Shown piece after piece: positions 4,517 to 42,626 of a stretch of DNA of 44,362 nucleotides. A program made the position numbers and the translations under genes. The notes beneath the pieces are model-generated. The model worked only from the letters and a program-made list of their open reading frames with translations, was not told the DNA's origin and did not search any database. Source of the stretch: an uncultured bacterium. GTDB taxonomy: Bacteria > Patescibacteriota > Minisyncoccia > UBA6257 > 2-01-FULL-56-20. The stretch's first letter is position 1. Every line of letters starts with the position of its first letter. Where the stretch lies: contig OY970354.1 of NCBI GenBank assembly GCA_963718515.1, positions 1 through 44,362 of the forward strand, read 5' to 3'.

Positions 4517-6811
4517 CTAATACTTCTTCTCCATCACCCCTCGGGTCAGTGCTCCAAAGAATCCAGTCGCGGGCGATATCCCATTGGCTTTCTGCCACTT
4601 GGCTAAGGCAGCGGCGGTCTTTGCGCCGAAATAGATGGCTTCATTGCCGGGAGATCCTGCACCGGTTGCTGCCACGGTATACCCGTTGTCATTCAGGAAC
4701 ATCTGCAGATTCTTTACGTCTTGCCCCGAGGATCCGATCGTGAGGTTTCGGGTGAAGGTTGCGACAAGCTGGGTGTTCAACTGCGTGATGAGGGACTCAA
4801 GCTCGGCAAGCAGGGTCTGTAAGAGGGCTTCAAGATCGGTTGATCCTGGAGGAACTGACTGGGTTGAGGATGAGGTTGAAGACGATGAAGAGCCAGAGCC
4901 ACCAGAGCCAGAGCCTGATCCACCGCCCCCCCCGCCACCACCACCGCCACCACCTTGTGCCTGGTTCTCCACGTTCACAGTAATAGCGGTTGAGTTGGTA
5001 TTGTCCGAAGTGTCCGTGGAAAGGGCAGTGATCGTATGATTCCCATTCGCAAGTGCCGTTGTATCAAGCGACTCAGTCCATGAACTTGTGCCATTCGCTG
5101 ATGCATAGCTTCCTCCGTCAATTGAGATGCCAACACTCGCGACAGCCACATTGTCTGAGGCAGCACCGGAGATCGTGATCACACCCGAGACGGTTGCGTT
5201 GTTTGTGGGACTTGTGATCGCAATGGAGGGAGGAATGGTATCGCCTCCTGCTTGGGTCGTACCTGATACGGGAGATGACGATGAGCTGTTGTTGCCAGCG
5301 GCATCATAGGCGGAGACGGTGTACGTGTAGGTGGTTGAGGGGGTGAGGCCGGTGTCCGTGAAGTTCGTGGTAGGAGTCGTCCCTGCTTGGGTGCCATTGC
5401 GGATCACCTTGTATCCTGTGACGCCCACGTTGTCTGAGCTTGGACTCCAGGTAAGGGAGATGGTTGAGGTGGTGACGCCGATCACTTGGAGATTGGTTGG
5501 GGTCGTGGGGGGTTGGGTGTCAGAGGATGAAGCATTCTGCACGGTCACATTCACGGCTGAGGAGATCGTCTGATTGTTTGAGGTGTCTTTCGCCAGTGCC
5601 GTGATTGCGTGAGATCCATTCGCGACGCTGTTCGAGTTCCAAGCATACGTATATGGCGGGGTGGTGATGGGAGAGCCAATCAAGGTTCCGTCAATCCTGA
5701 ACTGTACGGATGCGACGGCCACATTGTCTGATGCGGTTGCGGCGAGGGCGACGGTTCCCGAGACGGTCGCGCCATTCACGGGTGCGGTCATGCTGACCGT
5801 GGGCGGTTGCGTGTCCACAAACTTGGTTGATCCTTGGACCGGGGAAGATGCGGCAGAGTTGTTGCCCGCGGCATCGTAGGCGGAGACGGCATACGAATAC
5901 GTGCTTGATGGGGTGAGCCCTGTGTCATTGAAACTCGTATTCGCGGTTGTGCCGATCTGGACGCTCGGGGTACAGACGCCAGCACAGCGGTAGATCTTGT
6001 AGCCCGTGACACCGACGTTGTCGACGGATGCGGTCCAGCTGAGCGAGATGGTTGAGGTCGTGGTTCCCGTGACCGCAAGATTGGTGGGGACGGTTGGCGG
6101 TTGGGTGTCAGGATTCGTGACGGTGACCGTGACGCTTGCGGAGGTGCCCACATTTCCTGCCGCATCGTAGGCCTTCGCCGATAGCACATGCGTTCCATTC
6201 GATGCCGTCGTTGTGTTCCAACTCCAGGTGAAGGGCGATGATGAGTCGGTGGCAACAAGGACATTGTCGAGATAGAACTGGACGGAGGTGACGCCGACAT
6301 TGTCAGAGGCGGTGGCTGCGACCGTGATAGTGGATGAGACGGTGGCTCCTGAGAGCGGCGAGGTGATGGAGACGGTGGGAGGCTGGGTATCTTGATTTCC
6401 TGAAGTGATCGCGCTCACGGCTGATGACTCTGACGACGTATTGCCGTTCGTGTCATATGCGGCAACCGCATATGAATATGTAGTGGATGCAGTGAGTCCC
6501 GTATCCGTGTATGCGGTATTCCCCGTTGTTCCAACCTGGACGCTCGGAGTGCAAACGCCTGTGCAAGATTGGGTAATAACTTGAGTCCCCTTACTCGTGT
6601 TTTTATATGCGAATGTGAAGCGCGGCAATCGATTGAAGTCAGCCCGGCCAGCCTGAAAAATCCTGAATTGGCCAATTGTTCCCTGCTCCTCGGAGATACC
6701 ATTGAAGTGAGGGCGACGGGCAGGCAGGATTCGGTGCTCATCAGATTCATCAGCACCAAGATGAAGGATGATGCCCGCGATGAACATTCCGGCTGTGAGC
6801 TCGGAAAACAA
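4517..6811 (-). CDS. Wall-associated surface protein A (764 aa): FN3 and Ig-like repeats, poly-Gly/Ser linker, C-terminal peptidoglycan-binding domain; N-terminus atypical with no signal peptide
   Basis: - FN3 units are present (PPTVPTNLAVTGTTTSTISLSWTASVDNVGVTGYKIYR...YSYAVSAYDAAGN).
- Ig-like units are present (TQPPTVSITSPLSGATVSSTITVAATASDNVGV).
- A G11-(SG)n run is followed by FTRNLTIGSSGQDVKNLQMFLNDNGY...YFGAKTAAALAKWQKANGI.
- The first ~85 aa are unrelated, and the ORF starts inside half an FN3 unit. Confidence 0.75.
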   Translation of the reverse strand: MFSELTAGMFIAGIILHLGADESDEHRILPARRPHFNGISEEQGTIGQFRIFQAGRADFNRLPRFTFAYKNTSKGTQVITQSCTGVCTPSVQVGTTGNTAYTDTGLTASTTYSYAVAAYDTNGNTSSESSAVSAITSGNQDTQPPTVSITSPLSGATVSSTITVAATASDNVGVTSVQFYLDNVLVATDSSSPFTWSWNTTTASNGTHVLSAKAYDAAGNVGTSASVTVTVTNPDTQPPTVPTNLAVTGTTTSTISLSWTASVDNVGVTGYKIYRCAGVCTPSVQIGTTANTSFNDTGLTPSSTYSYAVSAYDAAGNNSAASSPVQGSTKFVDTQPPTVSMTAPVNGATVSGTVALAATASDNVAVASVQFRIDGTLIGSPITTPPYTYAWNSNSVANGSHAITALAKDTSNNQTISSAVNVTVQNASSSDTQPPTTPTNLQVIGVTTSTISLTWSPSSDNVGVTGYKVIRNGTQAGTTPTTNFTDTGLTPSTTYTYTVSAYDAAGNNSSSSSPVSGTTQAGGDTIPPSIAITSPTNNATVSGVITISGAASDNVAVASVGISIDGGSYASANGTSSWTESLDTTALANGNHTITALSTDTSDNTNSTAITVNVENQAQGGGGGGGGGGGGSGSGSGGSGSSSSSTSSSTQSVPPGSTDLEALLQTLLAELESLITQLNTQLVATFTRNLTIGSSGQDVKNLQMFLNDNGYTVAATGAGSPGNEAIYFGAKTAAALAKWQKANGISPATGFFGALTRGVMEKKY

Positions 6812-6876
6812 TTCTTCTTGGAACGAAAGCGATATCTGGAACTTCGCGAGAAATATAACGAACTAAGAAATTCGGA

Positions 6877-6897
6877 GGGTCGCTATTATAGCGGCCC
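6877..6897 (-). terminator. Possible terminator after giant gene B
   Basis: fwd GGGTCGCTATTATAGCGGCCC forms a 7/8-bp GC-rich stem with a 5-nt loop. It lies 12 nt after the stop and is followed on the minus strand by a moderately T-rich tract. Confidence 0.35.
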
Positions 6898-6908
6898 TTT
6901 CTCTTCCT

Positions 6909-19196: not shown

Positions 19197-20760
19197 GCCG
19201 GTCGGCCGATCCGTTCACCGCAACCGCGCCTTCAGAATATGCGTTATAAATTGTTCCAAGATTTTCTCCCACAAAATCTCCGCCGTAAGCGATACCTCCA
19301 ACAACACCAGCCGAAGTAGCGCCAGCAATTCCGCCGGTGCCTCCGGTGCCCGCAGATTGTCCGGCTCCGCCTTTTCCACCATTACCGCCTGTGCCGCCGG
19401 TTCCACCTGGCCCCCCGGCATGATTTCCAACACCAAGCGATCCATTACCACCAGTGCCGCCCACACCTCCTGCTCCGCCATTTGCTGCCAACGATGTTAC
19501 CGTTCCCCCCGCGTATGAATTTAAAATGACACCGGTCGCGGAGTTGTTTGCGGTAAGTCCGCCGGCATACGATGCGCCGCCCGTTCCACCAGCGCCACCG
19601 GTGCCGCCGCTCGCCGCAGTGGATCCGGAAATATTTCCGCTCGCGCCCCCCGCGCCGCCGACACCCGTGGTGCCAACTCCCCCGCTCACCGAATCAACAT
19701 TTCCTAACGCGTATGACGTTCCTTGAATGACTCCTGTGTTCACGCCGAGGAGTCCACCCGCGTACGATGCGCCGCCGTTTGCGGTAGCGCCTCCGGCACC
19801 GCCAACGCCGCCGAGCGCGCCTGAACCACCCGTGCCGCCAATGACTCCCGTCGCTCCGTTACCGCTCGCGCCCCCCTGGGCCGTCACGTTGTCCGTGGAA
19901 TAACTTGTTGTGACGGCGAGATCGGTGATCGCGCTCGCGCTCGTTTGCGCGATGAGTCCACCAGCGTATGCGGCACCACCAACACCGCTTGAACCGCCGG
20001 CGCCCGTTGCGCCTCCAGCCTTAGTAGATCCTCCGGAGCCAGATGTGCCGGCGCTGCCACCGTTTCCTCCGGTACCGCCAGTTGAGGTGGCATTATTTCC
20101 AATCGAGAATGAAGAAAGATAATTGATCGCACCGGTTGTGACGCTCACGTATCCCATCAAGCCACCGGCGTCCGCTTCGCCTCCGGCACCACCGGCACCA
20201 CCGGCACCACCGGCACCACCGATGGAACTTGCCGCGCCGTTCGAACCGATACCACCGGTGTTGCCCGTACTCCCCGTTCCTCCATTCGCGCTCACACTCC
20301 CACTCGCGTAAGAAGTTTCTACATCGATCTGTCCTGTCGTGATTCTATTATTACCAACGAGACCTCCTGCGTACGATGCGCCGCCAACCGCTGCGGTCAC
20401 TGCGCCGCCGCCGGCGCCGCCGGTGACGGTGGTTCGCGACGGACCGCCGTTTCCTGATGTGCCCGCTGTTCCCGCGCCGCCTCCGAATGAAGAAACATTT
20501 CCTGTTGCGAAATCGTTGAGGAAGTTGCTCGTACCGGAACTGAAGCTATTGTATCCAACCAAACCGCCGGCATCAGCTTCGCCGCCGACACCCGCAGAGC
20601 CGCCGAGTGCGCCGGGCGATCCGGCGGCAGTCGACGTTGCAAGCGATCCATCGCCGCCGTTTCCGCCGACACCTCCATTGCCACCAAGGCCGCCGGTCGA
20701 GGTAACATTTCCCGTTGCGCTCGAATTAAGTATTTGTAAAATTTGCGTGGTGCCCGTCAT
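19153..20760 (-). CDS. Middle fragment (535 codons) of the split giant gene: Gly/Ala-rich GLUG-like repeats
   Basis: The repeats have the form (Y/A)AGGL(V/I)G.N...I..SYA.G.V...GG.GG.G. The same frame stays open and in repeat register upstream of its first Met, back to a TGA at fwd 20896-20898. Confidence 0.8.
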   Translation of the reverse strand: MTGTTQILQILNSSATGNVTSTGGLGGNGGVGGNGGDGSLATSTAAGSPGALGGSAGVGGEADAGGLVGYNSFSSGTSNFLNDFATGNVSSFGGGAGTAGTSGNGGPSRTTVTGGAGGGAVTAAVGGASYAGGLVGNNRITTGQIDVETSYASGSVSANGGTGSTGNTGGIGSNGAASSIGGAGGAGGAGGAGGEADAGGLMGYVSVTTGAINYLSSFSIGNNATSTGGTGGNGGSAGTSGSGGSTKAGGATGAGGSSGVGGAAYAGGLIAQTSASAITDLAVTTSYSTDNVTAQGGASGNGATGVIGGTGGSGALGGVGGAGGATANGGASYAGGLLGVNTGVIQGTSYALGNVDSVSGGVGTTGVGGAGGASGNISGSTAASGGTGGAGGTGGASYAGGLTANNSATGVILNSYAGGTVTSLAANGGAGGVGGTGGNGSLGVGNHAGGPGGTGGTGGNGGKGGAGQSAGTGGTGGIAGATSAGVVGGIAYGGDFVGENLGTIYNAYSEGAVAVNGSADRRDGCCYEHASNDKL

Positions 20761-28928: not shown

Positions 28929-29177
28929 ATTTCCTTAATTTTACCACATATTTCCAGCATAAAACCGAAATTAATTCATTAAAATTCATCCTGTCGACCA
29001 ATTATTTTCTACCGCGGTATTTTGGAAAAATCAGTAAAATCTGACGCACATAAAACTACTGGCCGAAGCCCAATTCAAAGGTGAGGCTATGACAAAAGCG
29101 ACCCTTGCTTCGCTAAAAAAATATGGCACGAATGCCAGCCGATAATCTCTTTATTTGATACTTGTGATAAATAAATG

Positions 29178-29220
29178 TATTCAAGTTAATTCTGTAGACC
29201 ATATTGAATTAACTTGAATA
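29178..29220. repeat. Perfect 15-bp inverted repeat with a 13-bp spacer (43-bp palindromic site) at the left edge of the low-GC island
   Basis: TATTCAAGTTAATTC (29178-29192) and GAATTAACTTGAATA (29206-29220) are exact reverse complements. The site lies 8 nt beyond the stop of the HTH gene. Confidence 0.7.
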
Positions 29221-29227
29221 TATCCAA

Positions 29228-29527
29228 TCAGATATTTTTAGGCGGGATAGGGACTGGAATCGGTATGGGAATATCCTTGTTTTTTATGATATTTTTATTT
29301 CCCTTTTTTGGGCCTGGCCTTCCTAGACTATTCAAGCTATTTATACCGCCCTTTTTATATTGTTCTACCCAGTTACTCACCGCTTCATAACTAACACCCA
29401 TATGTTTTGCGACCTGATACTGTGACCAACCATGGTTATATAACTCGATCGCCTCTTTCCGACGCTCCACAAGAAGTGCTCGATCAACCCGTCTGTGGGT
29501 ATTTGAAGATATGTCTTTTCCGTCCAT
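29228..29527 (-). CDS. Small helix-turn-helix protein (99 aa) resembling the N-terminal HTH of IS630/Tc1-type transposases
   Basis: From the MDGKD start it reads ...RRKEAIELYNHGWSQYQVAKHMGVSYEAVSNWVEQYKKGGINSLNSLGRPGPKK, then an IPIPIPVPIPP tail. The longer ORF to 29755 overlaps the recombinase 5' end and has an implausible N-terminus. Confidence 0.65.
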   Translation of the reverse strand: MDGKDISSNTHRRVDRALLVERRKEAIELYNHGWSQYQVAKHMGVSYEAVSNWVEQYKKGGINSLNSLGRPGPKKGNKNIIKNKDIPIPIPVPIPPKNI

Positions 29528-29641
29528 TGATTCATGATAGCAAACCTCGGAGCGGTGACCAATCCTGTGGATAACCGAGAGCAAAAATGAATGCCTCGGT
29601 CGCTCTGGACTCCTAGAGGGGGTTGCGTCATCAATGTTGGT

Positions 29642-31036
29642 ATGAGTAACCAAATTATGGCCCCAGAAGGGACAGCGGCGCGGACGAAGGAGCAAGGCCC
29701 AGTAAAGGTCGTTTACTGCCTGTACGCAAGGAAATCGACCGAATCTGAGGAGCAACAGGTGCTGTCCATAGAGAGCCAGGTAAAGGAGATGTTGAAGATC
29801 GCCGAACGTGACGGACTGGAGATCATGGACATTCGGCGCGAATCACACTCGGCAAAGGACTCCGGCCAACGACCGGTATTTGTGGAACTTCTGAAGGACA
29901 TCCGCGAAGGCAAATTCAACGGAGTCCTCACGTGGGCACCGGATCGATTATCGAGAAACGCGGGCGACCTCGGATCGCTCGTCGATCTGATGGATCAAAA
30001 GTTATTGGTTAATATACGAACCTTCAGTCAAACATTTTCAAACTCCCCCAGTGAGAAGTTCATGCTCATGATAATGTGCTCGCAGGCGAAACTCGAGAAC
30101 GACAACAAATCAGAAAACGTGAAGCGCGGACTGCGAACGCGATGCGAGATGGGTCTGCGCCCGGGAGTCGCCCCAACAGGATATTTTAACGAGAAGCGAG
30201 TCGACAAAAAATGCCAAGTGATCGTTGATCCGGAGCGTGCGCCAATCATAAAGCAGATTTTTGAAAAGGTTGCATACGAACAATGGACTGGGCGACACAT
30301 CTATCACTGGCTGCGTCATGACCTCGATTTCAAAACAAAAACCGGAAAATATGTATCCCTTGGAAATATTTACCTTATCCTCAGGGCAACTTTCTATTAT
30401 GGGGTCTTTGAATATCCCGAAGGCAGCGGCAATTGGTACACGGGCGTCCATACTCCCCTCATCTCAAAAGATCTCTACGACAAAGTGCAAACTCAACTTA
30501 TCCGCAGCGAGATAAAGAAAAAGAACAAGGAGTTCGCCTTCGCTCGACTCATCACGTGCGGCCTCTGCGGGTCAAGCATGTGCGCTTCGGAAAAGTTCAA
30601 ACAACAGAAGAATGGAAATGTTCATCGGTACATTTACTACGGGTGCTCAAGGGGGCTCGATAAGACCTGTAAGGCCGGATATATCAAAGAAGAAGAAATC
30701 CTCCAGCAGCTAATTGAGATCGTGGACACTCTTGATATGAATGAGCTCGGCATCCGCCATAAATTCAAGGACGAGGTTGCGCGGTACGGCAAGTTCAGAA
30801 AAATGGTGCTCGGGAAAGATAAAGAAACTACAAATGGCCTGAACGACGATGCCGATCTTCGAACGTACGTGAAGTATCTCTTATCTGAAGGAACCATCCT
30901 CGAAAAACGCGACGTCCTCGCAAATCTGAAAAGCAGACTGATATTCAGGGACGAAAAAAATCACTGCAGAAATAGATCAGTGACTTGCCTATGCGTAAAT
31001 TTGAGCCACCCTGCCCTGAAGATAAGGTGGGGGTAG
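29642..31036 (+). CDS. Large serine recombinase (464 aa from MSNQIM; ORF open from 29591)
   Basis: - The resolvase catalytic region is present (VVYCLYARKSTESEEQQVLSIESQ, WAPDRLSRNAGD).
- A recombinase domain is present.
- A Cys-rich zinc ribbon is present (CGLCGSSMCASEKF...YYGCSRGLDKTCK).
- A C-terminal coiled region is present. Confidence 0.85.
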   Translation: MSNQIMAPEGTAARTKEQGPVKVVYCLYARKSTESEEQQVLSIESQVKEMLKIAERDGLEIMDIRRESHSAKDSGQRPVFVELLKDIREGKFNGVLTWAPDRLSRNAGDLGSLVDLMDQKLLVNIRTFSQTFSNSPSEKFMLMIMCSQAKLENDNKSENVKRGLRTRCEMGLRPGVAPTGYFNEKRVDKKCQVIVDPERAPIIKQIFEKVAYEQWTGRHIYHWLRHDLDFKTKTGKYVSLGNIYLILRATFYYGVFEYPEGSGNWYTGVHTPLISKDLYDKVQTQLIRSEIKKKNKEFAFARLITCGLCGSSMCASEKFKQQKNGNVHRYIYYGCSRGLDKTCKAGYIKEEEILQQLIEIVDTLDMNELGIRHKFKDEVARYGKFRKMVLGKDKETTNGLNDDADLRTYVKYLLSEGTILEKRDVLANLKSRLIFRDEKNHCRNRSVTCLCVNLSHPALKIRWG

Positions 31037-31082
31037 CTTCAAAGCGATTATTTTATATGAATTTTTAATGTGATAGTCCTTC

Positions 31083-31868
31083 TCAACATTTTTCAGGAGA
31101 TGGCTTTTTTCCTTCTTTTTTACCAATACTAAGCAAATCAATATATTCTTTGCTTACTTTCTCAAATTCTTTTTCTAGACCAAACGCAAAAACCTTGTCT
31201 GCGGTCTCGAATATGGAGAAAAAGAAGTCAAAGCTCTTTACCAGCGATTCTTCTATTAAATTGGTCTTTGCGCCTATATCAATCACGAGGGATCCGTCGC
31301 TATCTTCTTTGAAATACTCGTTAATGCTGCGCGATTCAGAGTGCGACAGCATACACTGAATTTTATATGCTGTCTTATAATCCTCCTCCCTGCCGACTTC
31401 CTTTGCCATTTCGGCAATCGACTTATCGGACCATCTAAACGGCTTCTCATAATTATCCTTAACGCCATCGTAGGCATTTTGTATCTCCTGAAAAACCTCA
31501 GGCGTAGCACGCTCGTCGTTCAGCAACTCCGGCCGAGTAGCAATATGATCATAGAGTTTTTTTCGAGTGACGTGATCATATTCCATATATCTGGTTAACC
31601 TTTTGTCCGTGGCGTCGGCTAAAATGTAAAGAAAAATTACCAACAGCTCAAATAGTGTTCTGCTGAGCATAAAGGCATCTTCTCCGAAACCGTTCTTACA
31701 AAGCAGGGTAATCGCCGCATGGGTTCTGCGACTTTTTGCGAGAGCGAAAGTCGTAAACAATTGCTTAGGGGTCGTATTAGATAAGCCTTTTTCCAACTGG
31801 GCATCCAAAAGAGAATCCAACCCCTCATTCATCCTTTCAAGTTCCTTAAAAATCTCCTCGGTTCTCAT
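31083..31868 (-). CDS. Hypothetical all-helical protein (261 aa). It has a weak resemblance, from memory, to AbiV/DUF5677-type proteins
   Basis: The ORF is clean and has a coding-like composition. The segment AAITLLCKNGFGEDAFMLSRTLFELLVIFLYI is reminiscent of AbiV/DUF5677 N-terminal helices. The function is not established. Confidence 0.7.
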   Translation of the reverse strand: MRTEEIFKELERMNEGLDSLLDAQLEKGLSNTTPKQLFTTFALAKSRRTHAAITLLCKNGFGEDAFMLSRTLFELLVIFLYILADATDKRLTRYMEYDHVTRKKLYDHIATRPELLNDERATPEVFQEIQNAYDGVKDNYEKPFRWSDKSIAEMAKEVGREEDYKTAYKIQCMLSHSESRSINEYFKEDSDGSLVIDIGAKTNLIEESLVKSFDFFFSIFETADKVFAFGLEKEFEKVSKEYIDLLSIGKKEGKKPSPEKC

Positions 31869-31874
31869 GTGGAT

Positions 31875-31903
31875 ATTATAAACCCCACATAGTCCATATC
31901 CAA
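31875..31903 (-). promoter_or_regulatory. Promoter giving a leaderless transcript of the 261-aa gene
   Basis: The minus strand reads TTGGAT (fwd 31898-31903), a 17-nt spacer, then TATAAT (fwd 31875-31880). Only 6 nt separate the -10 box from the ATG at 31868. Confidence 0.4.
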
Positions 31904-32004
31904 TTACCCTCGCGTAGTGACGAGTTGAATGGATTCATATCCTGGGACCTGACTTTTGGAAACATAGGGTAAGTCGGTCTTAAATCGACTTAGCCTTGAG
32001 TGTT

Positions 32005-32075
32005 GCGGGGGCAAGACTCGGACTTGCTTCGGAAGCTTATGGGGCTTCCCGGAAAACCTTTCCCAACCCTCCCGC
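32005..32075 (-). ncRNA. 71-nt tRNA-like cloverleaf (degenerate tRNA, pseudo-tRNA or novel small RNA) with a CAU anticodon-like loop
   Basis: The minus strand reads GCGGGAG-GGUUG-GGAA-AGGUU-UUCC-G-GGAAGC-CCCAUAA-GCUUCC-GAA-GCAAG-UCCGAGU-CUUGC-CCCCGC. This is a four-way junction of tRNA size, with GG in the D-like loop, a G53:C61-type closing pair, and a near-canonical T loop. Several features are non-canonical: the 8-12 linker, C33, C55, and an A/C mismatch in the acceptor stem. Confidence 0.35.
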
Positions 32076-32110
32076 GCTATGAGATCGCATGTGACCTCTC
32101 TAACCTGTGC

Positions 32111-32140
32111 ATTATATAGATTGTATGCCGCGGTTGTCAA
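32111..32140 (-). promoter_or_regulatory. Near-consensus sigma70 promoter driving the tRNA-like element
   Basis: The minus strand reads TTGACA (fwd 32135-32140), an 18-nt spacer, then TATAAT (fwd 32111-32116), about 30 nt before the cloverleaf. The same palindromic TTGTCAA could serve as the -35 box of a weak divergent murD promoter (AATCAT at 32157-32162). Confidence 0.55.
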
Positions 32141-32168
32141 AGAAAACGATTAATGCAATCATCAAAAG

Positions 32169-33506
32169 ATGATGACGATATCGGAATCGATCGCCGCGAA
32201 TTTCAAAGGTAAAAAAATAACATTGATGGGACTCGGGCTTTTGGGCCGTGGCGTGGGCGACGCCGAGTTCCTGGCGGCGTGCGGCGCGGAGCTTATCGTG
32301 ACCGATCTTAAGACCGAAGCCGAGCTCGCCCCATCGATCGCGCGGCTAAAGGGATTTCCAAACATCACATACCATTTGGGCGGACATCGGCTTGAGGATT
32401 TTGAAGGCCGCGACATGATTCTGCGTGCGCCGAACACGCCGCTCGACTCGCCCTTCATCGCGCATGCGCGCGAACACGGCGTTCCCGTGGAAATGGACGC
32501 GTCGCTTTTTGCCAAACTCTCCCCCGCCACGATCGTGGGCATCACGGGAACGCGCGGGAAGTCGACGGTCACCCACCTTATCTATGAGATGGCGAAATCT
32601 GCGGGAAAACATCCCGTGCTCGGCGGCAATGAGCGCGGCATTGCAACGCTTCCCCTTCTTCAAACAACCAACAAAGACAGTCTCGTCCTTCTCGAGCTCG
32701 ACTCATGGCAGTTGCAGGGTTTCGAGGACGCCGGGATCAGCCCGCATATTTCCGTGTGGACGAATTTTATGCCGGATCATATGAACTATTATAAGGGCGA
32801 CATGGATCGCTATTTCCAAGATAAAGCGGCTATCGCGCGATTCCAAAAAAGCGGCGACTATTTTGTTACCACGACGGATATCAAAGAAAAAATAGCGGCG
32901 CAGTTCGGCGCGCTTCAAAGCACGGTGACCACCGATCCGACACTGCCGGAAGACTGGCAAATCGCACTACCCGGCGAACATAACCGCAGGAACGCCGCCT
33001 TCGCCTGCGCGGTCGCGCACGCGCTCGGCATCCCCGACGACGTTATTAAAGAAATATTAAAAACATTTGCCGGACTTCCGGGGCGACTGGAGTTTTTGGG
33101 AGAAAAGAACAGCATCGCGTTCTACGACGATGGAAATTCCACCACACCCGAGGCGACGATCGCCGCACTCGACGCGCTCGCCGCAAAAAACCGCCCGATC
33201 ATCTTGATCGCCGGCGGAAGCGATAAAGAGCTCGACTTCAGAGACCTGATTCCTAAAATAAAAGCTTCGGTAAAAAAACTTGTGCTCTTTGAAGGAAAGG
33301 CGACGGATAAAATAAAAACGCTCCTTGCAGGCACATTCCCCTTTACGACTGCGGGCTCCATGGAGGAGGCACTCTCCGCCGCGCTCGGCGTCGCAGAACC
33401 GCACGACATCATTCTCCTCTCCCCCGGCGCGACCAGTTTTGGGATCTTCAGGAATGAATATGATCGCGGCGACCAGTTCAAAGCGGCCGTTGAAAAAATC
33501 AGCTAA
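32169..33506 (+). CDS. murD: UDP-N-acetylmuramoylalanine-D-glutamate ligase
   Basis: It has an N-terminal Rossmann-like segment (GKKITLMGLGLLGRGVGDAEFL), the Mur ligase P-loop GITGTRGKSTV, and the motifs ELDSWQL, GEHNRRNA and PGRLEF. Confidence 0.85.
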   Translation: MMTISESIAANFKGKKITLMGLGLLGRGVGDAEFLAACGAELIVTDLKTEAELAPSIARLKGFPNITYHLGGHRLEDFEGRDMILRAPNTPLDSPFIAHAREHGVPVEMDASLFAKLSPATIVGITGTRGKSTVTHLIYEMAKSAGKHPVLGGNERGIATLPLLQTTNKDSLVLLELDSWQLQGFEDAGISPHISVWTNFMPDHMNYYKGDMDRYFQDKAAIARFQKSGDYFVTTTDIKEKIAAQFGALQSTVTTDPTLPEDWQIALPGEHNRRNAAFACAVAHALGIPDDVIKEILKTFAGLPGRLEFLGEKNSIAFYDDGNSTTPEATIAALDALAAKNRPIILIAGGSDKELDFRDLIPKIKASVKKLVLFEGKATDKIKTLLAGTFPFTTAGSMEEALSAALGVAEPHDIILLSPGATSFGIFRNEYDRGDQFKAAVEKIS

Positions 33507-33819: not shown

Positions 33820-33843
33820 CGCAAAAATATTTGCGACAATACT

Positions 33844-34884
33844 ATGGAACCGCTCCACGATCTCACCATAAAAAAATTTCACGACGGATTGCTCAATAAA
33901 GAGTTTTCCGCGCTTGAGGTCACGCAGGCATATTTTGACCGGATCAAAGCGCACGACAAAGAGATTGGCGCATACTTGAGCCTCGCGGAAGAATCCGCCA
34001 CGCGCGCGGCGAGCGAAGTGGATGTCGCCGTCGCAAGCGATGAGACGATCGGCGATCTCGCGGGCGTCCCGCTCGCCATCAAGGACTGTATTTTAATAAA
34101 AGACCTTCCCGCCACGGCGGCCTCCAAGATTTTGGAACATTATACTGCCGCCTACGACGCGGGCGTCATCCAAAAACTCCGCGCCGGGCGCGCGGTCTTT
34201 CTCGGCAAGACCAATATGGATGAGTTCGCGATGGGATCGTCCACGGAAAATTCTGCATTCGGCGCGACGCACAACCCTCACGACCACTCGCGCGTGCCCG
34301 GCGGCTCATCCGGCGGCTCCGCGGCGGCAGTCGCGGCGCATTTTGCGGTTGCCGCGCTCGGCTCCGACACCGGCGGCTCGATCCGCCAGCCGGCGGCGCT
34401 TTCGGGCGTCGTCGGATTCAAACCGACGTACGGCGCGGTCTCCCGCTCCGGCCTCATCGCGATGGCGTCGAGTCTCGACCAGATCGGCCCGCTCACAAAA
34501 ACCGTGGAGGACGCGGCGGTGCTCTTCAAAGCGATCGCCGGCCGTGATCCGCTCGATGCAACGAGCGTCGACGTTCCGGGAGACTATGAAAGCATCGCTG
34601 GCTTCGATGATCTGGCACCGCTTGATCGCGTAAAACAGCTCACGATCGGCCTCCCTGAGGAATATTTTATCGACGGACTCGACAAGGCGGTTTCGGATGG
34701 CGTGCAGAGCGCGATCGACAGACTAAAAAGTCTCGGCTTTAACTTTAAAAAAATATCTTTGCCGCATACAAAGTATGCGCTCTCGTGTTATTACATCGTG
34801 ATGCCTGCCGAGGTCAGCTCCAACCTCGCACGCTTTGACGGCATCCGCTATGCGCGGCTCGAAAGATGTCGGGGATGCAGCTAG
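33844..34884 (+). CDS. gatA: Asp/Glu-tRNA amidotransferase subunit A, N-terminal 2/3 (frame broken near 34850-34862)
   Basis: It carries the amidase signature [33 protein letters not shown]. The ORF ends ...[20 protein letters not shown], losing homology after DGIRYA. Confidence 0.85.
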
Positions 34885-35308
34885 CGAAAAGCTTAGCGAT
34901 ATCTATTTCAAACAACGTGGCGAGGGATTCGGCGCGGAAGCAAAACGCCGCATCATCCTCGGCACCTTCGTGCTTTCTTCCGGCTACTACGACGCCTATT
35001 ATGAAAAAGCCCAACGCGTCCGCACGCTCATCCGGCGCGATTTCGACGAGGCATTCAAAAACGTTGACGTGATCCTTGCCCCGACAACGCCCACCCCTGC
35101 GTTCAAGATCGGCGAAAAGACGAACGATCCCCTCGCGATGTATCTCGAAGATGTCTTCACGATCCCCGTAAACCTCGCTGGCTTGCCCGGCATCTCGATC
35201 CCGGTGGACGGCGCAACGCCCCTCCCCGTCGGCTTCCAGCTGATCGGAAAAAAGTGGCACGAGGCAGACATTCTGAATATCGGCCGCTATTATGAAAAAT
35301 TAAGGTAA
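34835..35308 (+). CDS. gatA: Asp/Glu-tRNA amidotransferase subunit A, C-terminal 1/3 (+1 frame relative to the N-terminal part)
   Basis: It reads ...[56 protein letters not shown]...[11 protein letters not shown], which is the canonical GatA C-terminal region. Confidence 0.85.
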
Positions 35309-35331
35309 GATTAAATAGATCACCCACCACG

Positions 35332-36893: not shown

Positions 36894-36958
36894 GTGCTAG
36901 TAACTTCATTTTACCTTATTGTCCTTCTTTGCAACAGCCGAGAAATCCACAGGGTGCA

Positions 36959-37828: not shown

Positions 37829-37871
37829 ACTTTAAGTATACCAAAATCGCTGACCGCTTGATGGATTTCTC

Positions 37872-40800
37872 CTATTCCCCCTCTTCGTCATTCAACGCCT
37901 CCCTGGTGCGCGGCCCCACAGCGCCATAGCCCGTGAAGTAAGGGGTGCCGTAGTTCACGATGCCATTCTTTGCTTGAAATAATTCCACCGCCCTCTCGGT
38001 GAGCGATCCATAATATCCGGTGATGATAGCTTGCGGATAATCACCATCTTTTATAAGGAGTTCTTGGAGGAGGGCGACATCGGCGCCCTGCGAGCCGGGG
38101 CCAAGATATCGGGTGAAAGTGAGGCCCGAGGAAGATGATGGTGCACTAACAGCGGGGGTGGTAGTTGCGACTCTTGTGATACTTGAAGTAGTAATTGCCA
38201 TTGCATTGGCAACCTTATTCATAAGAGCCTGGGATTGCGGGCCGAGAGATCCCGTCTCTGCAAGCTCATGCACATTCTGGAAAACCAACAAGGCGTGCTG
38301 AGTGTAAGCACCAAAGTAAGAAGTGGGGGCAATATCGGTGGGGAAAAATCCCAGGGTTTGGAGCAATCTCTGGAGAAGGTTCACGTCGGCGCCGGTGTCC
38401 CCGAGGGTAAGAGGCCGCGGAAAATAAACAATGGAGGGAGGAGGGGCGCTTCCGCTATTGCCGCCGATCGGGATCGAGGAGGAAGAAGATGATGATGAGG
38501 TTGCAGTGATGGGAGACGTGACTGGCGGAATGTAACCGCCTCCGCCACCACCTCCGCTGGTGGGAGCCGTTGGAGCGGTCGCTGGAGCCGCAGTCGTAAA
38601 CATAGAGTTCCCCGATGAAACGGTGCTGGTTGATCCTTCCGCAGTCGCAAGAATAAGGAAGTTATAAACGGTGTTCGGAGTAAGGCTTACGAGGTTCTCA
38701 TAGATCGTGGTCAGTTCCGGTGAGGCAGGGGTGGTATTCCCGTAGGAGGTGGTGGATCCATATTGCACTCTAATGCTGGAAGATTCATTGGTTGTGATGG
38801 TGAGTTCCGCACCGGTGTCGGTGACGTTCGAAACGGTGGCTCCCGTGATCGCAAAGGTGGAGGAAGGAGTTGACGATGGAGTTGTTCCGGATGAGGATAC
38901 GGTGATGACCTCCTGCGCCTCTGCTGGTGGCGCGCTGCCCCGCTCCACGATGACCTTCGCGGCATAGGTGCCCTGGGTCTCATAGGTGCAGAGGGCTGAG
39001 GCGAGATAGGTGGTCGCGGTCGCGGCATTCACCGTAAGGTCCGCAGGGCTCGTGATGTTCGTGCCCGTGTCCGAGCGGTTGCAGTAGAAGATGTAATTCA
39101 CGGTGCCTTGTGCGGTGCCAGCTACGCTTGCCGTGAGCGAGGTTGTGACGGGGGCGGTGCCGGAGACGGGTGATGCGGCAAGTGTTGCAGTGAGTGTCTG
39201 GGGCGCATTTGATACGATGACCGTGACATTGCCCGAAGTGCCGACGTTGCCTGCGGCATCATATGCCTTGGTGGTAAGCGTGTAAGTCCCATTCGACACG
39301 GAGTTGGTATTCCACGAGAAGGTGTATGGGCTTACCGTGTCCGTGCCTTGGAGTAATCCGTCCATATAGAATTGCACCTTTACGACGCCCACGTTGTCTG
39401 AGGCGGTGGCAGTGATGGTGCTTGTGCCAGAAACAGTGGCGTTGTTCAGAGGACTCGTGATGGAAGTCACGGGAGGGGTCACGTCGGGGGCATTCGATAC
39501 GGTGAGGGTGAGGGTTGAGCTTCCCGTGCCTCCTGCATTCGTGGCACTGATCGTGACGCTTGTCGTTCCTGCGGTCGTAGGAGTTCCTGAAATCATGCCT
39601 GAGGAGGTATTCACGGAGAGACCTGAAGGAAGACTTGATGCATTGTATGACGTGGGGCTGTTCGATCCCGTGATCTGGTAGGAGAAGGCGGAACCGACGG
39701 TGCCGGAAGAAGAGAGGGAGCTTGTGATCGCGGGGGCGGAAGGGAGAACGACGTTGTTCACCGTCACCGTGATATTTCCCGAAACGGCGGTGTTCCCTGC
39801 GGCATCGTAAGCTTTGGTAAACATGACATGACTGCCGTTCGCGAAGCTTGTGGTGTTGAGCGAGAAGGTATAGGGACTCGTCGTATCCGTCCCTGTGAGC
39901 GTGCCATCCACGTAGAGTTCCACCTTCACGACACCGACATTGTCCGAGGCGGTGGCGGAGACGGTGATCGTGCTTGATACCGTGGCGTTGTTCAGAGGGG
40001 AGGTGATGCTTGTCGTAGGAGGGGTCGTATCTGCGGGGTTTCCTGTGGTGGCATTGATGCCTGATGACTGGGCAGAGGCATTCCCTGCGTTGTCATATGC
40101 AGAAATAGTGTATGAGTAGGTGGTGCTGGGGGTGAGGCCGGTGTTCGTGAAGGAATTTGTGGTGCTTGTCCCCACCTGCACGCCCCCTCTATATATCCTG
40201 TATCCTGCGAGGCCTGAGGTCGTCTGGCCATTCACGGTGGGATCGGTGCTTTGGGTCCATGCAAGAGAGATCGTGGAGGTCGTGATGTTTGATGCGGCAA
40301 GGCCGGTGGGGACAGAGGGAGGGGTCACGTCGGGGGCATTACTTGGTGTCGCCACATTCAAACCAATTGATTGGGAGGAAATATTGCCGGAGGGATCGTA
40401 TGCGGCGACCGTATACGTGTAACTGGCCGAAAGAGAAACCGTTGCATCCGAATATGACGTCGCAGTCGTGATAGCGATCTTCGTTCCGTTGCGATAGATG
40501 TCATACCCCGCAACTCCCACGTTATCCGTCGCCGGACTCCAGGAAAATGCCACCGTAGAGGAAGTGACCGTGGAGGTTACGAGTCCAATGGGAGTGGTCG
40601 GCGGGGTCGTGTCATCCGGCGGCAATGCGGTACTGCAATTTACCGATGGCTGGTTACTGGTCGAGTCGGTATCCTGGCCGGTATATGATTGCCACTGCGG
40701 AAGCGTGTCGGTAATGGTCGTAGGGGCAGTATTCAAAACGGGGCCATCCGGAATAATAAAAGGTTCGTTCCCGGCGCTATACCATGTATTATCATCCGAG

Positions 40801-42626
40801 GTGAGGGTGCTCGTGGATAGACGCCATGGATCTATGGGGTTGTAAGGACTTGGAATGTCCACGTCCGCATCAGTCCCCACGGCGACCACCAAATTATTTT
40901 TCATCGTGACGTTGCTCGTCACCGGCAAGTTATACACCACTCCGGTCTGATAATTCGTTGCGGTGCGGCCGGTGTTGCTTCCCCCGAAGAGAAGTCCCGC
41001 GATTACATTACGATCGAACGTATTTGATTCCACCGTAAGGTATGAAGTGTTTCGGGAATAAAGCCCGCCCGCCCCTTCTAAGGCAGGGGTGTCTATGCCA
41101 TTCGACTGGTTTTGGCAAAAGAAATCATTTTGGAATACGAGAGGGCCCTCGTTATCCTCCGTGTCCGCCCCATTCGCCAAATTTTCAGAAAAAGTGGTAT
41201 TGGAAACCAGAATGTCCTGATTATCGGTGTCGAACCATAGGCCGCCGGTTTGATTATCGCTAAACGTGGAACTGGTGATGGTCGCGCCATGGATGTAGAG
41301 CGTTTTCATGCCTGCGGCGGCCCATCCCGTGAAACCCGCTTCATAACCGCGCCAATTGTTAAATGAGGTATTGTCGTTTTGCATAAAAACGTTCGGTACG
41401 CGATCGAGCACTATTCCATCATCGCCATTATGGTTCGCGGCACTATTCTGGATGGTGACGTCCGCCGCATTGTACATAAACAATCCCTCCCATGTGTTCC
41501 AAAGGAATTGATCGTTATCAAAAAGAAAATTTTTTCCGTTGATAACGGAAACCGTACCGCCACCGTCGATCCCGCTTGCGCTATGCGCAAAAACCAATCC
41601 CCTCAGGACGAGATTTTGAACATTGTCTGCGGTGACGAGGGACTGTCGGGTCGCAACTTCTATTTCCGCGCTCGCCATCTGCGTCCCTGCCGGCGGATCG
41701 ATCGTTATCGAACTTCCATCCGTAACAAAAAAAGTGCCCGGGGCGGTAAGCGGGCCGGAAAGTTCTTGTGCAAGCGGAAGGCCATTCACATATACCATCT
41801 CTGCGCGAAGGGCGAGACATCCCGCGCCGGAGCCGGGGCACGTGCTTGCGGCGGGAATAGGTTGCTGTCCCAACCAACCATTGGGAAGGGCTGCATATCC
41901 CCAACTATTCGGCCAAGGATGGGAGTAGGTGCCATCACCATTGCTTGTCCAACCAGCGTAGACATCCGATCCGGAAATAATTGCCTGACCAGGCACGGCT
42001 GCCTGTATGATAAGGGGCGCGCTGTTTGTTTGAGACGACCACGCACTAAGATTGAGCGTTTCACGATATATGCCGGGATTTACCATGATCTTGGTGCCTC
42101 CCAGAATATTCTTCGCCGCGATCGTGAGCGCCTTTCCTATTGTGGCATACGGCGCGGCGGAGGTTCCGGCATTGTTATCGTTTCCATATTGCGCATTTAC
42201 ATAGAGCGTTTCGGTGATGTTGCTCTCATTGATCGACGCACCGGTGCCGCCGACGGCGATGGTGGCCGCCGAAGCGCTTGCGCTCATCGGGGAACTATTT
42301 CCCATGGCATCAAAGGCCGATACGGTATAGGTATAGCTGGTCAAGGCCGTGAGTCCCAGATCAACGTAACTCGTCGCCGTCGCGCTTGCGACGAGCGTGC
42401 CATTGCGATAGATGTCGTATCCCGCGATCGCGGCGGTGGCATCGGTGGACGTCGCCCACGAAAGATCGATCTCGTCGGCCGCGGTGCCGGTCGCCGCGAG
42501 CGACGCGGGAGCGGATGGGCCGGCGGCGGCGCGGGTTGCCGGCGGCGTCACCGCCAGGAACGCACCGACCGTCACGATCGCCAATATGAATGCGAGCGAA
42601 AACAAAATCAACCTCGAGTGCCTCAT
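37872..42626 (-). CDS. Giant secreted wall-associated protein F (1,584 aa from the MRHSRL start), a mosaic paralogue of B
   Basis: - Signal peptide MRHSRLILFSLAFILAIVTVGAFLAV.
- An FN3 unit.
- A ~600-aa beta-helix-like region.
- Two FN3 units.
- Three Ig-like units.
- A putative He_PIG/cadherin-like Ig unit (PAITSS...FSYQITGSNSPTSYNASSLPSGLSVNTSSGMISGTP).
- A PKD-like unit.
- G6-YIPP.
- Two PG-binding domains (RPLTLGDTGADVNLLQRLL..., GSQGADVALLQELL...).
- The ORF is open to 42737. Confidence 0.9.
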   Translation of the reverse strand: MRHSRLILFSLAFILAIVTVGAFLAVTPPATRAAAGPSAPASLAATGTAADEIDLSWATSTDATAAIAGYDIYRNGTLVASATATSYVDLGLTALTSYTYTVSAFDAMGNSSPMSASASAATIAVGGTGASINESNITETLYVNAQYGNDNNAGTSAAPYATIGKALTIAAKNILGGTKIMVNPGIYRETLNLSAWSSQTNSAPLIIQAAVPGQAIISGSDVYAGWTSNGDGTYSHPWPNSWGYAALPNGWLGQQPIPAASTCPGSGAGCLALRAEMVYVNGLPLAQELSGPLTAPGTFFVTDGSSITIDPPAGTQMASAEIEVATRQSLVTADNVQNLVLRGLVFAHSASGIDGGGTVSVINGKNFLFDNDQFLWNTWEGLFMYNAADVTIQNSAANHNGDDGIVLDRVPNVFMQNDNTSFNNWRGYEAGFTGWAAAGMKTLYIHGATITSSTFSDNQTGGLWFDTDNQDILVSNTTFSENLANGADTEDNEGPLVFQNDFFCQNQSNGIDTPALEGAGGLYSRNTSYLTVESNTFDRNVIAGLLFGGSNTGRTATNYQTGVVYNLPVTSNVTMKNNLVVAVGTDADVDIPSPYNPIDPWRLSTSTLTSDDNTWYSAGNEPFIIPDGPVLNTAPTTITDTLPQWQSYTGQDTDSTSNQPSVNCSTALPPDDTTPPTTPIGLVTSTVTSSTVAFSWSPATDNVGVAGYDIYRNGTKIAITTATSYSDATVSLSASYTYTVAAYDPSGNISSQSIGLNVATPSNAPDVTPPSVPTGLAASNITTSTISLAWTQSTDPTVNGQTTSGLAGYRIYRGGVQVGTSTTNSFTNTGLTPSTTYSYTISAYDNAGNASAQSSGINATTGNPADTTPPTTSITSPLNNATVSSTITVSATASDNVGVVKVELYVDGTLTGTDTTSPYTFSLNTTSFANGSHVMFTKAYDAAGNTAVSGNITVTVNNVVLPSAPAITSSLSSSGTVGSAFSYQITGSNSPTSYNASSLPSGLSVNTSSGMISGTPTTAGTTSVTISATNAGGTGSSTLTLTVSNAPDVTPPVTSITSPLNNATVSGTSTITATASDNVGVVKVQFYMDGLLQGTDTVSPYTFSWNTNSVSNGTYTLTTKAYDAAGNVGTSGNVTVIVSNAPQTLTATLAASPVSGTAPVTTSLTASVAGTAQGTVNYIFYCNRSDTGTNITSPADLTVNAATATTYLASALCTYETQGTYAAKVIVERGSAPPAEAQEVITVSSSGTTPSSTPSSTFAITGATVSNVTDTGAELTITTNESSSIRVQYGSTTSYGNTTPASPELTTIYENLVSLTPNTVYNFLILATAEGSTSTVSSGNSMFTTAAPATAPTAPTSGGGGGGGYIPPVTSPITATSSSSSSSSIPIGGNSGSAPPPSIVYFPRPLTLGDTGADVNLLQRLLQTLGFFPTDIAPTSYFGAYTQHALLVFQNVHELAETGSLGPQSQALMNKVANAMAITTSSITRVATTTPAVSAPSSSSGLTFTRYLGPGSQGADVALLQELLIKDGDYPQAIITGYYGSLTERAVELFQAKNGIVNYGTPYFTGYGAVGPRTREALNDEEGE
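39961..40336. repeat. 376-bp segment identical to 8686..9061 (direct repeat, copy 2, inside gene F)
   Basis: See copy 1. The overlapping track ORFs 8717..8956 and 39992..40231 translate identically. Confidence 0.9.

Follow-up and report, generated by a model that had tools for sequence, protein, structure and literature searches.

The stretch of DNA analysed here (44,362 nt; contig OY970354.1 of assembly GCA_963718515.1, positions 1 to 44,362, forward strand; hereafter, the window) carries four genes for very large proteins (A, B, D-E-C and F), whose products are probably multi-domain surface proteins exported by the Sec pathway and held non-covalently on the cell's own peptidoglycan by C-terminal PG_binding_1 domains. 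Sequence comparison further indicates that one of these genes, D-E-C, moves between species of Paceibacteria on an island with a large serine recombinase; this was the unexpected result of the analysis. Six open reading frames (ORFs) of at least 500 amino acids (aa) were found in the window, every one of them on the minus strand, with a summed length of 28,071 nt (63% of the window); three of them belong to a single gene, which is read in the order D, E and C. The genes and ORFs are as follows.

4517-6811, minus strand: gene A, 764 aa as ORF; three Big_7 and three FN3 units, then the tail
6909-12776, minus strand: ORF of gene B; probable start ATG at 12755, giving 6909-12755 and 1948 aa
13887-28928, minus strand: giant gene D-E-C
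20757-28928, minus strand: ORF D
19153-20760, minus strand: ORF E
13887-19196, minus strand: ORF C
37872-42737, minus strand: ORF of gene F; probable start M38 at 42626, giving 37872-42626 and 1584 aa

An earlier reading of this DNA (the original prediction) had described these genes as modular, with variable N-terminal heads over a common C-terminal PG_binding_1-type tail, and this build was borne out by the present analysis. In each of the four, the C-terminal part begins with a Gly run, continues with a spacer that is either low in complexity or helical, and closes with a single or double domain of the PG_binding_1 type (peptidoglycan-binding or PG domain); the components are listed below.

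4919-4954, minus strand: Gly12 run of A, followed by a 25-aa spacer (92% Ser, Thr, Pro, Gly or Ala)
4766-4843, minus strand: amphipathic helix of A (STDLEALLQTLLAELESLITQLNTQL), immediately preceding the PG domain; this unit recurs in homologues
4532-4756, minus strand: PG_binding_1 of A, one copy (Pfam, 36.9 bits)
7764-7856, minus strand: Gly/Ser tract of B (27 residues, G6-TS-G4-S-G4-SS-G8), then YTAP
6921-7442, minus strand: two PG_binding_1 of B, at 7218-7442 and 6921-7136 (Pfam, 74.1 bits for 2 copies)
14334-14420, minus strand: G9-SS-G8 of C, then TGVIAS, then YIPP; predicted to be disordered, with a predicted local distance difference test (pLDDT) value of ~50
14196-14270, minus strand: long single helix of C (TLAQEELLNLLITELQALLKEAQAQ; model residues 39-63, pLDDT 85-88)
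13905-14126, minus strand: domain of the PG_binding_1 fold in C (Pfam, 18.7 bits; AlphaFold model)
38523-38555, minus strand: Gly7 and YIPP box of F; the box is kept in homologues P0187, P0001, P0002, P0005, P0231 and P0065
37893-38423, minus strand: two PG_binding_1 of F, at 38220-38423 and 37893-38117 (Pfam, 70 bits for 2 copies)

The gathering score of Pfam PG_binding_1 (PF01471) is 23 bits, which was passed by A (36.9 bits), B (74.1 bits) and F (70 bits), and the tail of C fell below it (18.7 bits, E 0.002). For the C tail, a model was built with AlphaFold from an alignment of the window tails with their homologues. The last 70 residues formed a helical bundle (pLDDT >90), for which Foldseek found the N-terminal PG-binding domain of SleB (6tci; target-normalised TM 0.78, root mean square deviation 2.4) and then 5tv7, SleC, CtpB and phiKZ gp144, all at probability 1.0; the PG-binding domains of the AP3 endolysin and YcbB were matched as well. 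On the evidence of this model, the domain of C has the PG_binding_1 fold despite its sub-threshold Pfam score. Failure of the tails to match PG-binding profiles, which had been set as a test of the original prediction, was not seen, as A, B and F pass the Pfam threshold and the model of C matches SleB.

Some details of the tails had to be corrected. The Gly run of F, given before as six residues, is of seven residues, and the amphipathic helical linker is present in A and C and not in B and F. The uniform order of the tail also breaks down in B, in which an extra FN3-like domain of ~85 aa, beginning at the YTAP box, separates the Gly run from the anchor. The spacers after the Gly runs consist of Ser, Thr, Pro, Gly and Ala to 73-92%. 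The possibility that the Gly runs are prone to slippage was ruled out: in all four genes they use mixed GGN codons, and the C tail was identical across four samples (no difference at 13611-15333 among the four runs compared).

LPxT[GASN] was absent from all four tails, and no hydrophobic stretch of at least 14 residues was found within the last 200 residues of any of them. The proteins end in the PG domain rather than in the LPXTG motif, hydrophobic segment and basic tail of sortase substrates, and there is no transmembrane helix after the Gly/YIPP box of the kind expected in GlyGly-CTERM, PEP-CTERM or PGF-CTERM proteins; the box lies 120-300 aa from the C-terminus, and spacers and folded domains come after it. 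Since neither LPXTG nor a C-terminal hydrophobic segment is present, the PG domain has no rival in the form of a covalent or membrane anchor. The window also encodes MurD, so that the organism makes peptidoglycan. The best named relatives of this MurD were from Candidatus Paceibacterota (79% identity) and Minisyncoccia (71% identity). It is encoded on a contig of 829,201 bp, and the assumption of a small-genome organism stood up well: the 829-kb contig and the 79% identity of MurD to Candidatus Paceibacterota point to a Patescibacterium.

To see how widely the tail occurs, the F tail was searched exhaustively with HMMER against 1.84 billion representative proteins. The search returned 11,484 matches at a cut-off of E<=1e-3, and 149 at the stricter cut-off of E<=1e-30; lengths of 1,000-4,000 aa with 6-22 FN3-like stretches were frequent among them. 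Homologues in Kaiserbacteria, Nomurabacteria and other Patescibacteria were annotated as 'peptidoglycan-binding proteins', and some homologues carried PKD. The tail was therefore present on other secreted-type proteins, as had been expected, in many Patescibacteria; the same matches speak against an architecture special to this genome, since the design is common across the group. When 209 homologues were compared, a local PG-domain profile matched 150, with the PG domain C-terminal in 94 and N-terminal in 54 of them. Gly runs of at least five residues occurred in 31 of these 150 proteins, and 38 of the 41 runs lay upstream of the PG domain, mostly by 30-130 aa. A helix of the type ELLQQIQALQQQIQILQ immediately before the PG domain was common in the homologues, often just past the signal peptide. 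Nine of them (P0019, P0021, P0023, P0024, P0035, P0038, P0044, P0051 and P0058) consist of a signal peptide, a Gln/Leu-rich amphipathic helix, PG_binding_1 and variable domains, and such arrangements indicate that the helix and PG-domain unit found at the C-termini of A and C also serves at N-termini. For Paceibacteria, extracellular proteins that carry PG-binding, Ig-like and PKD domains were described as highly expressed (PMC10936435), and very large FN3-bearing surface proteins were described from other Patescibacteria (PMC13059738). The combination of a wall anchor and a variable head is thus a known design, of which the PG_binding_1 tail with a Gly hinge and the depolymerase-like heads are variants here; the general plan is common and already in the literature, and the proteins by themselves are no surprise.

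The further claim that the tail is an interchangeable cassette did not hold. The six PG domains of the window were pairwise 30-62% identical (closest pairs, A/B1 62% and B2/F2 57%), and the tails did not match one another at the DNA level; from these comparisons the window tails are best described as diverged paralogues and not as a cassette passed from gene to gene. As for recent exchange, a single case was found, a gene-conversion-like patch of 430 nt between the stalks of B and F (B aa 1239-1381, F aa 801-943), of which the flanks are at most 72% identical; no such patch was found in tails or heads.

8634-9062, minus strand: patch of B, 430 nt, 96.5% identical to F at 39909-40337; FN3 and the start of Big_7

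This patch could be taken as a sign that the locus is a variation system, in which copies that are silent or truncated, A for example, would pass on modules of the stalk or head to the expressed genes by gene conversion and so alter the surface specificity. The lack of a signal peptide and the truncated first FN3 in A, the identity of the patch within much less similar surroundings, and the placement of all the genes on one strand would fit such a system. Nevertheless, no more than one conversion tract was found, in the stalk and not in a head; the likeness of A to B is confined to 127 nt (79% identity), and A has no stretch in common with F or C; neither an invertase nor recombination sites were seen beside A, B or F; and strain variants of A, B and F were absent from the metagenome runs found. 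We consider a variation system very improbable.

The domain orders of B, F and D-E-C and the positions of two heads are as follows.

B, in order: putative signal peptide (MKKYLIILLLGIGIFSYAPASHA), N-terminal domain, Flg_new_2, FN3, beta-helix head, Big_7/FN3 stalk; at the C-terminal side, two Pur_ac_phosph_N-like FN3 split by the Gly tract, then two PG_binding_1
F, in order: putative signal/anchor peptide, FN3, beta-helix head, FN3/Big_7/He_PIG stalk, FN3-like domain, Gly7-YIPP, Ser/Thr/Pro spacer, two PG_binding_1
D-E-C, in order: putative signal peptide, Ser/Thr-rich region, DUF11, GLUG-type Gly/Ala-rich repeats, at least 17 FN3, beta-sandwich, tail
9369-11504, minus strand: head of B (aa 425-1136), right-handed beta-helix by model
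41094-41681, minus strand: Beta_helix/NosD core of the F head (Pfam Beta_helix, 53.7 bits)

The head of F was recognised by Pfam as Beta_helix (53.7 bits; gathering score, 25.9) and NosD (38.7 bits), and had weak sequence similarity to the GH120 xylosidase 3vst and AlgG. The central 712 aa of B had no Pfam match, and the comparison with PDB sequences was likewise empty; nevertheless, the region had full-length relatives, at 50-58% identity, in hundreds of hypothetical proteins of ~740 aa that stand alone and belong to no Pfam family, one of which was named as Terriglobales and some of which were on multi-megabase contigs. The B head is accordingly listed here as a candidate for a cross-phylum transfer followed by fusion. 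A model built with 40 of the stand-alone relatives was a right-handed beta-helix (pLDDT 82; predicted TM-score 0.89), and gave 41 PDB matches at E<=1e-3, nearly all of which were beta-helix polysaccharide-active enzymes or phage tailspikes; the best neighbours were the Klebsiella K1 capsule lyase (7w1c), GH110 galactosidases, phage tailspike depolymerases, GH28 and alginate epimerases. The family has invariant Asp, Glu, His and Arg columns. The beta-helix regions named in the original prediction were upheld in the heads of B and F, of which the fold is of the polysaccharide-depolymerase type rather than that of obvious adhesins. Judging from these models and matches, cutting or binding of glycans by the two heads is at least as likely as plain adhesion.

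The FN3 arrays, Ig-like (Big_7), He_PIG-like, DUF11-like and beta-helix units named in the original prediction were all confirmed by Pfam: 17 copies of fn3 were found in C, Big_7 units were recognised, He_PIG was found in F, and DUF11 was the only family obtained in whole-protein Pfam and NCBIfam scans of D. The same whole-protein scans of E were empty. The GLUG-like fibre repeats were also verified, since a sub-segment of D with the first repeats passed the Glug (PF07581) threshold (26.7 bits; gathering score, 20.5); neither whole D nor the later repeat segment of 669 aa matched Glug (for the segment, nothing even at E<=1), which means that most of the D repeats are too diverged. These repeats are rich in Gly and Ala with a YAGGLVG core, of which ~24 similar cores were counted by pattern. 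A PKD-like unit was not recovered: the segment of B tested (aa ~1412-1523) gave no Pfam family at E<=1. By eye, n-, h- and c-regions could be seen at the N-termini of B (MKKYLIILLLGIGIFSYAPASHA), D (MTSSRALRLAIIVSVIFFLSLFSGPLLRASA) and F (MRHSRLILFSLAFILAIVTVGAF...). In the Ser/Thr-rich N-terminal region of D there is a direct repeat of 187 nt (28310-28496 and 28652-28838; 96% identical, 342 nt apart).

That D-E-C is a surface gene had been foreseen, and its place as the cargo of a mobile island had been missed. The features of the island are listed below; its right end reads ...CTTAGCCTTGAG, and an excised circle would join this end to TGTTGCCGTACTCGG.

13273-32000: integrative island, 18,728 bp; TGTTGC at 13273-13278 and 32001-32006
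29591-31036, plus strand: large serine recombinase with Resolvase, Recombinase and Zn_ribbon_recom; 439 aa in contigs L121 and L122
29228-29755, minus strand: small helix-turn-helix protein, 99 aa as called in L121
31083-31868, minus strand: DUF5677 protein; an identical protein is on 10 other contigs
32001-32077: attachment site, a 77-nt element 5' of murD; degenerate copy at the left end, 13273-13293

The three domains of the recombinase scored 80.7, 42 and 37.6 bits, each over its gathering score. In metagenome runs from peat, permafrost and freshwater that hold 19-21 kb of the window, little outside 13273 to ~32025 was found at >=90% likeness, with the exception of brief conserved regions, for example in rRNA and tRNA genes. 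At this likeness, the peat runs with the island lacked A, B and F as well as the housekeeping genes that code for proteins. In L121, a contig of the Joint Genome Institute (JGI), a segment is 99.909% identical to the window over 10,944 nt, and the neighbouring murD region is 77.6% identical. A contig of peat run X7 carries the empty site, in which a homologue of the left flank is joined directly to TGTTGC-GGGGGCAAGACTCG... The 77-nt element does not differ between the window and L121 (100% identity), though the adjacent murD region is 78% identical, and was present at 100-250x depth in peat metagenomes; the left end of the island holds a degenerate copy of its first ~20 nt. A cloverleaf drawing of the element is possible, with an acceptor-like stem of 7 perfect base pairs, but the folding z-scores (-0.5 and -1.3) were not significant, and nothing was found in it by Rfam (at the gathering threshold for the whole window; at E<=1 for 31800-32200) or by ARAGORN. 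With these boundaries and the near-identity across species, the sequences indicate that the giant surface-protein gene moves between Paceibacteria species on the serine-recombinase island.

Other contigs suggest a family of islands with variable, envelope-related cargo. In L121, a further block of 7.3 kb (2522-9843) lies between an intact element and a partial copy, and carries Fic, thymidylate kinase (Tmk), glycosyltransferase and methyltransferase genes and two NUDIX genes; this looks like tandem accretion at the same site. In L122 (2540-6486), the recombinase-DUF5677 pair is 99.3% identical to that of the window, with three glycosyltransferases in place of the giant gene. A chimeric window contig was considered as another source of this pattern, and was ruled out by the second genomic context, the empty site and the pieces of run X25 all along the window; X25 is a soil run of low depth, with scattered exact pieces across the window and one contig over the right junction (32048-32414). 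That the island is a phage was also rejected, because the recombinase had no relative in IMG/VR and structural genes were lacking. No circular junction was found in the contigs examined; note that contigs drop rare forms. In four metatranscriptomes from peat and permafrost, a few exact fragments of the giant gene were found, part of the tail included, which is weak evidence that the gene is expressed. As for the left end of the island, it abuts the 5' end of the tRNA-Met gene in the peat contig of X7, and the tRNA-Met of the window (4374-4448) is parted from the island by A and B (8.8 kb; joint, 4448/13273). A and B may be an insertion relative to the X7 genome.

The original prediction had treated the split ORFs D, E and C as one gene, which we retain; the split itself could be traced to repeat sequence that is missing from this assembly. 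The frame changes at ~20891-20896 (D/E) and ~19203-19230 (E/C), and independent contigs from peat and permafrost match the window at >99.9% yet differ exactly at the frame breaks.

20891-20896, minus strand: D/E break; other assemblies have ~604 nt more (3n+1), which restores the frame
19203-19206, minus strand: E/C break; peat contigs run on through a further 1442 nt or more of Gly-rich repeat at one side, and into another FN3 at the other

The additional sequence at the D/E break was found in a contig of 8779 nt in X3 and X7, and contigs of X1 and X2, though shorter, contain this junction too. At 19385-19398, peat contigs carry an extra 531 nt in frame, and the giant gene differed between samples mainly in repeat number. 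In L121, the giant gene was called without interruption for 4,315 residues, running off the contig end; with the added repeat sequence, the full D-E-C gene is thus estimated at ~5,900 aa or more.

Two more places in the window have a similar appearance. The gatA gene is present as two overlapping ORFs (33844-34884 and 34835-35308) with a frameshift near 34850 (window positions 34835-34884), and the GatA of the relative L121 is intact (495 aa); the frameshift is probably a consensus error in the assembly. In the recombinase gene, one base is missing after 30953 and one is extra at 31029 as compared with all the peat copies, which alters the frame of the last ~25 codons. It may be argued that part of the set has really decayed, with A a 5'-truncated remnant, true frame-breaking deletions in D-E-C, and only B and F functional. 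The N-terminus of A and the two breaks in D-E-C would agree with this, and the window differs from at least four other assemblies exactly at the breaks. The gatA frameshift and the compensating indels of the recombinase, together with the uninterrupted call of 4315 codons to the end of L121, point the other way; partial decay is unlikely in our estimation, though a serious alternative, and assembly or consensus errors are favoured over decay as the source of the frame breaks on comparison of the assemblies. The N-terminus of A itself may be explained if A is a 5'-truncated copy.

We propose the following arrangement for these proteins. B, D-E-C and F would be exported by Sec, as their N-termini suggest, and retained on the murein of the producer via the C-terminal PG_binding_1, in view of the domain family, the lack of another anchor and the finding of murD. 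The PG domain of A and of C has one long helix ahead of it. The Gly run with the Ser/Thr/Pro stretch would form a disordered hinge and spacer, as expected from its composition and the pLDDT of ~50. The FN3/Big_7 arrays would make up a stalk or spacer. At the far end, B and F would present a beta-helix of the polysaccharide lyase/hydrolase (tailspike-like) type, with a glycan of a partner cell or of the matrix as the probable object of its binding or cutting, and D-E-C a very long GLUG/Gly-rich fibre with DUF11. Diversification would proceed by domain shuffling, change of repeat number and horizontal transfer, of which the B head (a stand-alone family fused in), the conversion patch of B and F, and the D-E-C cargo may be examples; for the last, the large serine recombinase would move the island into the conserved 77-nt element beside murD.

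Several points weigh against this proposal. Where proteins with PG_binding_1 have been characterised, the domain usually brings hydrolases to their substrate. Both the binding of peptidoglycan by the tails and the identity of the wall that is bound are predictions from sequence. A has no signal peptide recognisable by eye, and its first FN3 is truncated; D-E-C is broken at two places in this assembly; and the metatranscriptome matches are few and could be explained by contaminating DNA. For the heads, the beta-helix adhesin PfbA was also among the structure matches of B, and the fold thus occurs in pure adhesins; the TM-scores of the B-head matches were low (0.2-0.35), which establishes the fold class only.

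From the first of these points, the PG_binding_1 tail could instead be the working end, which grips the wall of a bacterial host or prey, with the protein released or bridging the two cells and the head clearing capsule or exopolysaccharide. The solved structures do place this fold on hydrolases and endolysins as a targeting module (SleB, SleC, phiKZ gp144, AP3 and YcbB), homologues P0017, P0020, P0043 and P0048 combine PG_binding_1 with NlpC/P60 or CHAP, no other anchor to the producer cell is present, and proteins with PG-binding domains were proposed to take part in host attachment (PMC10936435). Against it, an unanchored binder of a foreign wall would be lost from a cell that spends 3% of the coding capacity of a 0.83-Mb genome on these genes; the order of a long stalk and then a hinge puts the tail at a base-like end; the helix and PG unit follow directly on the signal peptide in many homologues; and Paceibacteria with such proteins parasitise archaea, which have no murein (PMC10936435). 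A grip on a host wall is in our opinion rather unlikely, and anchoring on the producer's own wall is retained as the probable function of the tails.

The junction between the Gly run and the aromatic-Pro box (Gly-[YF][IV]PP) was considered separately. As had been anticipated, the box is kept in diverged F-like orthologues: P0187 has G8-YVPP, P0001 has G10-YYIPP, P0002 has G8-FVPP, P0005 has GGG-YVPP and GGGG-YVPIP, and the box is also found in P0231 and P0065. Most other homologues with a Gly run and a PG domain have only Ser/Thr past the run. A DNA scan of 185,579 species genomes for G6-[YF]-[IVM]-P-P gave at least 119 matches, and among the matches listed, many were in frame within long ORFs of very different lineages. 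In Saccharibacteria, Paceibacteria and Candidatus (Ca.) Microsyncoccus, the box was followed by a beta-sandwich ('KVVLQGKAYP..ITILKDG'); in Actinomycetota, it was found in NlpC/P60 proteins ('GGGGGGFVPPPNASAAQIAIAAA'); and there were also matches in Bacillota, Planctomycetota, Thermoplasmatota and DPANN archaea. One match (L023) was from Ca. Microsyncoccus archaeolyticus PMX.50, a metagenome-assembled genome analysed in PMC10936435. Secreted proteins of many phyla have the box without PG-binding domains. None of 28 other runs of at least six Gly in the same box-bearing loci carried the box, which shows that the box is no automatic companion of Gly runs. Past the box came folded domains or Ser/Thr spacers, and never a transmembrane segment and charged tail as in a sorting signal. 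From these alignments and matches, the box appears to be real and recurrent, not tied to PG anchors, and variable in its place within the protein; in our reading, it marks a hinge boundary, where the flexible Gly run meets the stiff Pro-containing start of the next segment.

The same junction could be a dedicated site of processing, sorting or cross-linking, at which a Gly-Gly endopeptidase would release the head or a transpeptidase would attach it covalently. Its conservation in the diverged F-like orthologues, its recurrence in the island-borne C tail and the in-frame matches in many phyla, often in long secreted-looking ORFs, are in favour of such a site, and by a rough estimate the box is well above the chance expectation after Gly6, although the matches, at least 119 in number, give no background frequency for enrichment. 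The variable position (N-terminal, middle or C-terminal), the folded domains that come next (FN3-like in B, beta-sandwich in Saccharibacteria, NlpC/P60 in Actinomycetota), the lack of the box in most Gly runs upstream of PG domains and in the 28 other runs, and the lack of a partner enzyme encoded nearby in the window are against it, and we regard a processing site as improbable. Equally little chance is given to a wider proposal that joins the two subjects, in which the box would be a cross-phylum signal for a peptidase or transpeptidase acting on wall-associated secreted proteins of monoderm bacteria and archaea, and host-interaction genes of episymbiotic Paceibacteria would be traded between species on serine-recombinase islands at a conserved, tRNA-like 77-nt element; if true, the box would control the release or maturation of giant surface proteins. 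The hinge boundary is thus preferred for the box.

The remainder of the window consists largely of housekeeping flanks: the 5' end of 23S rRNA, tRNA-Pro, dUTPase, the CCA-adding enzyme, PheS, tRNA-Met and MurD, and further GatC, GatA, tRNA-Asp and the C-terminal part of DNA ligase. On the 5' side of B (12790-12945), there is a short, very basic reading frame broken by a stop or frame change; it may be a damaged rpmH-like gene, and was left unnamed on account of the broken frames.

A large part of bacterial diversity belongs to the Patescibacteria, of which the members cultivated to date live attached to other cells. To our knowledge, how they attach and choose their hosts is largely unknown, and there are almost no genetic tools for them. 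The locus may be read as a parts list for such attachment: a C-terminal PG_binding_1 anchor, which a helix precedes in two of the proteins (A and C), a hinge of Gly, a stalk of FN3/Big_7 units, and a head that is either depolymerase-like or a fibre. A surface gene of ~15-18 kb appears to move between species of which the adjacent murD is just 78% identical, and such horizontal exchange of surface determinants could explain quick shifts of host range. A genetic tool for Patescibacteria might also be made from the recombinase of the island together with its 77-nt target.

As compared with known systems, the island resembles those of the large serine recombinases of the phiC31/Bxb1 type, TndX/TnpX and the Ccr islands of SCCmec, with which it shares the Resolvase, Recombinase and Zn-ribbon domains, site-specific insertion at a short shared core, an empty site and further elements in tandem at the one site (L121); it differs in the absence of phage or conjugation genes, in having essentially one cargo gene of ~15-18 kb, and in its target, an unannotated element of 77 nt beside murD in Paceibacteria. 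The window proteins are similar to the giant adhesins, namely the RTX adhesins (LapA/MpIBP), Ebh, SiiE and the proteins of Absconditicoccaceae (PMC13059738), in that they are very long, with Ig-like/FN3 extenders and distal binding regions; however, the latter are held by a retention module of the type I secretion system, a membrane anchor or LPXTG, whereas those of the window have a C-terminal wall-binding domain, and a putative signal peptide that would imply Sec. With the tailspike and capsule depolymerases and the beta-helix lyases or hydrolases (7w1c, 4ru4, 8bke, GH110, GH28), a right-handed parallel beta-helix is shared by B (from structure) and F (from Pfam), at 8-12% identity and TM 0.2-0.35; in the window, the helix stands on an FN3/Big_7 stalk with a wall anchor and not on a virion. 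SleB/SleC, phiKZ gp144, AP3 and YcbB have the same fold and Pfam family as the window tails, but in these the domain brings a catalytic domain that modifies peptidoglycan to its substrate, and A, B, C and F have no such catalytic domain. A variable head with a conserved non-covalent wall module, often with a low-complexity linker, is also seen in proteins with LysM, GW, SLH, CWB2 and choline-binding repeats, whereas the module of the window is PG_binding_1 (PF01471), of an unrelated fold; we know of no case in which PG_binding_1 was shown to anchor proteins of adhesin size. The nearest likeness is to the Paceibacteria proteins of Ca. Yanofskyibacterium and Ca. Minisyncoccus/Microsyncoccus (Kuroda et al. 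2024; PMC10936435), which are of the same class, secreted, with PG_binding_1 and Ig-like arrays, and for which host interaction was proposed; as compared with these, the proteins of the window are much larger (1.6k to ~6k aa), have heads of the beta-helix or GLUG kind and a hinge with a Gly run, and include one that is encoded on a mobile island.

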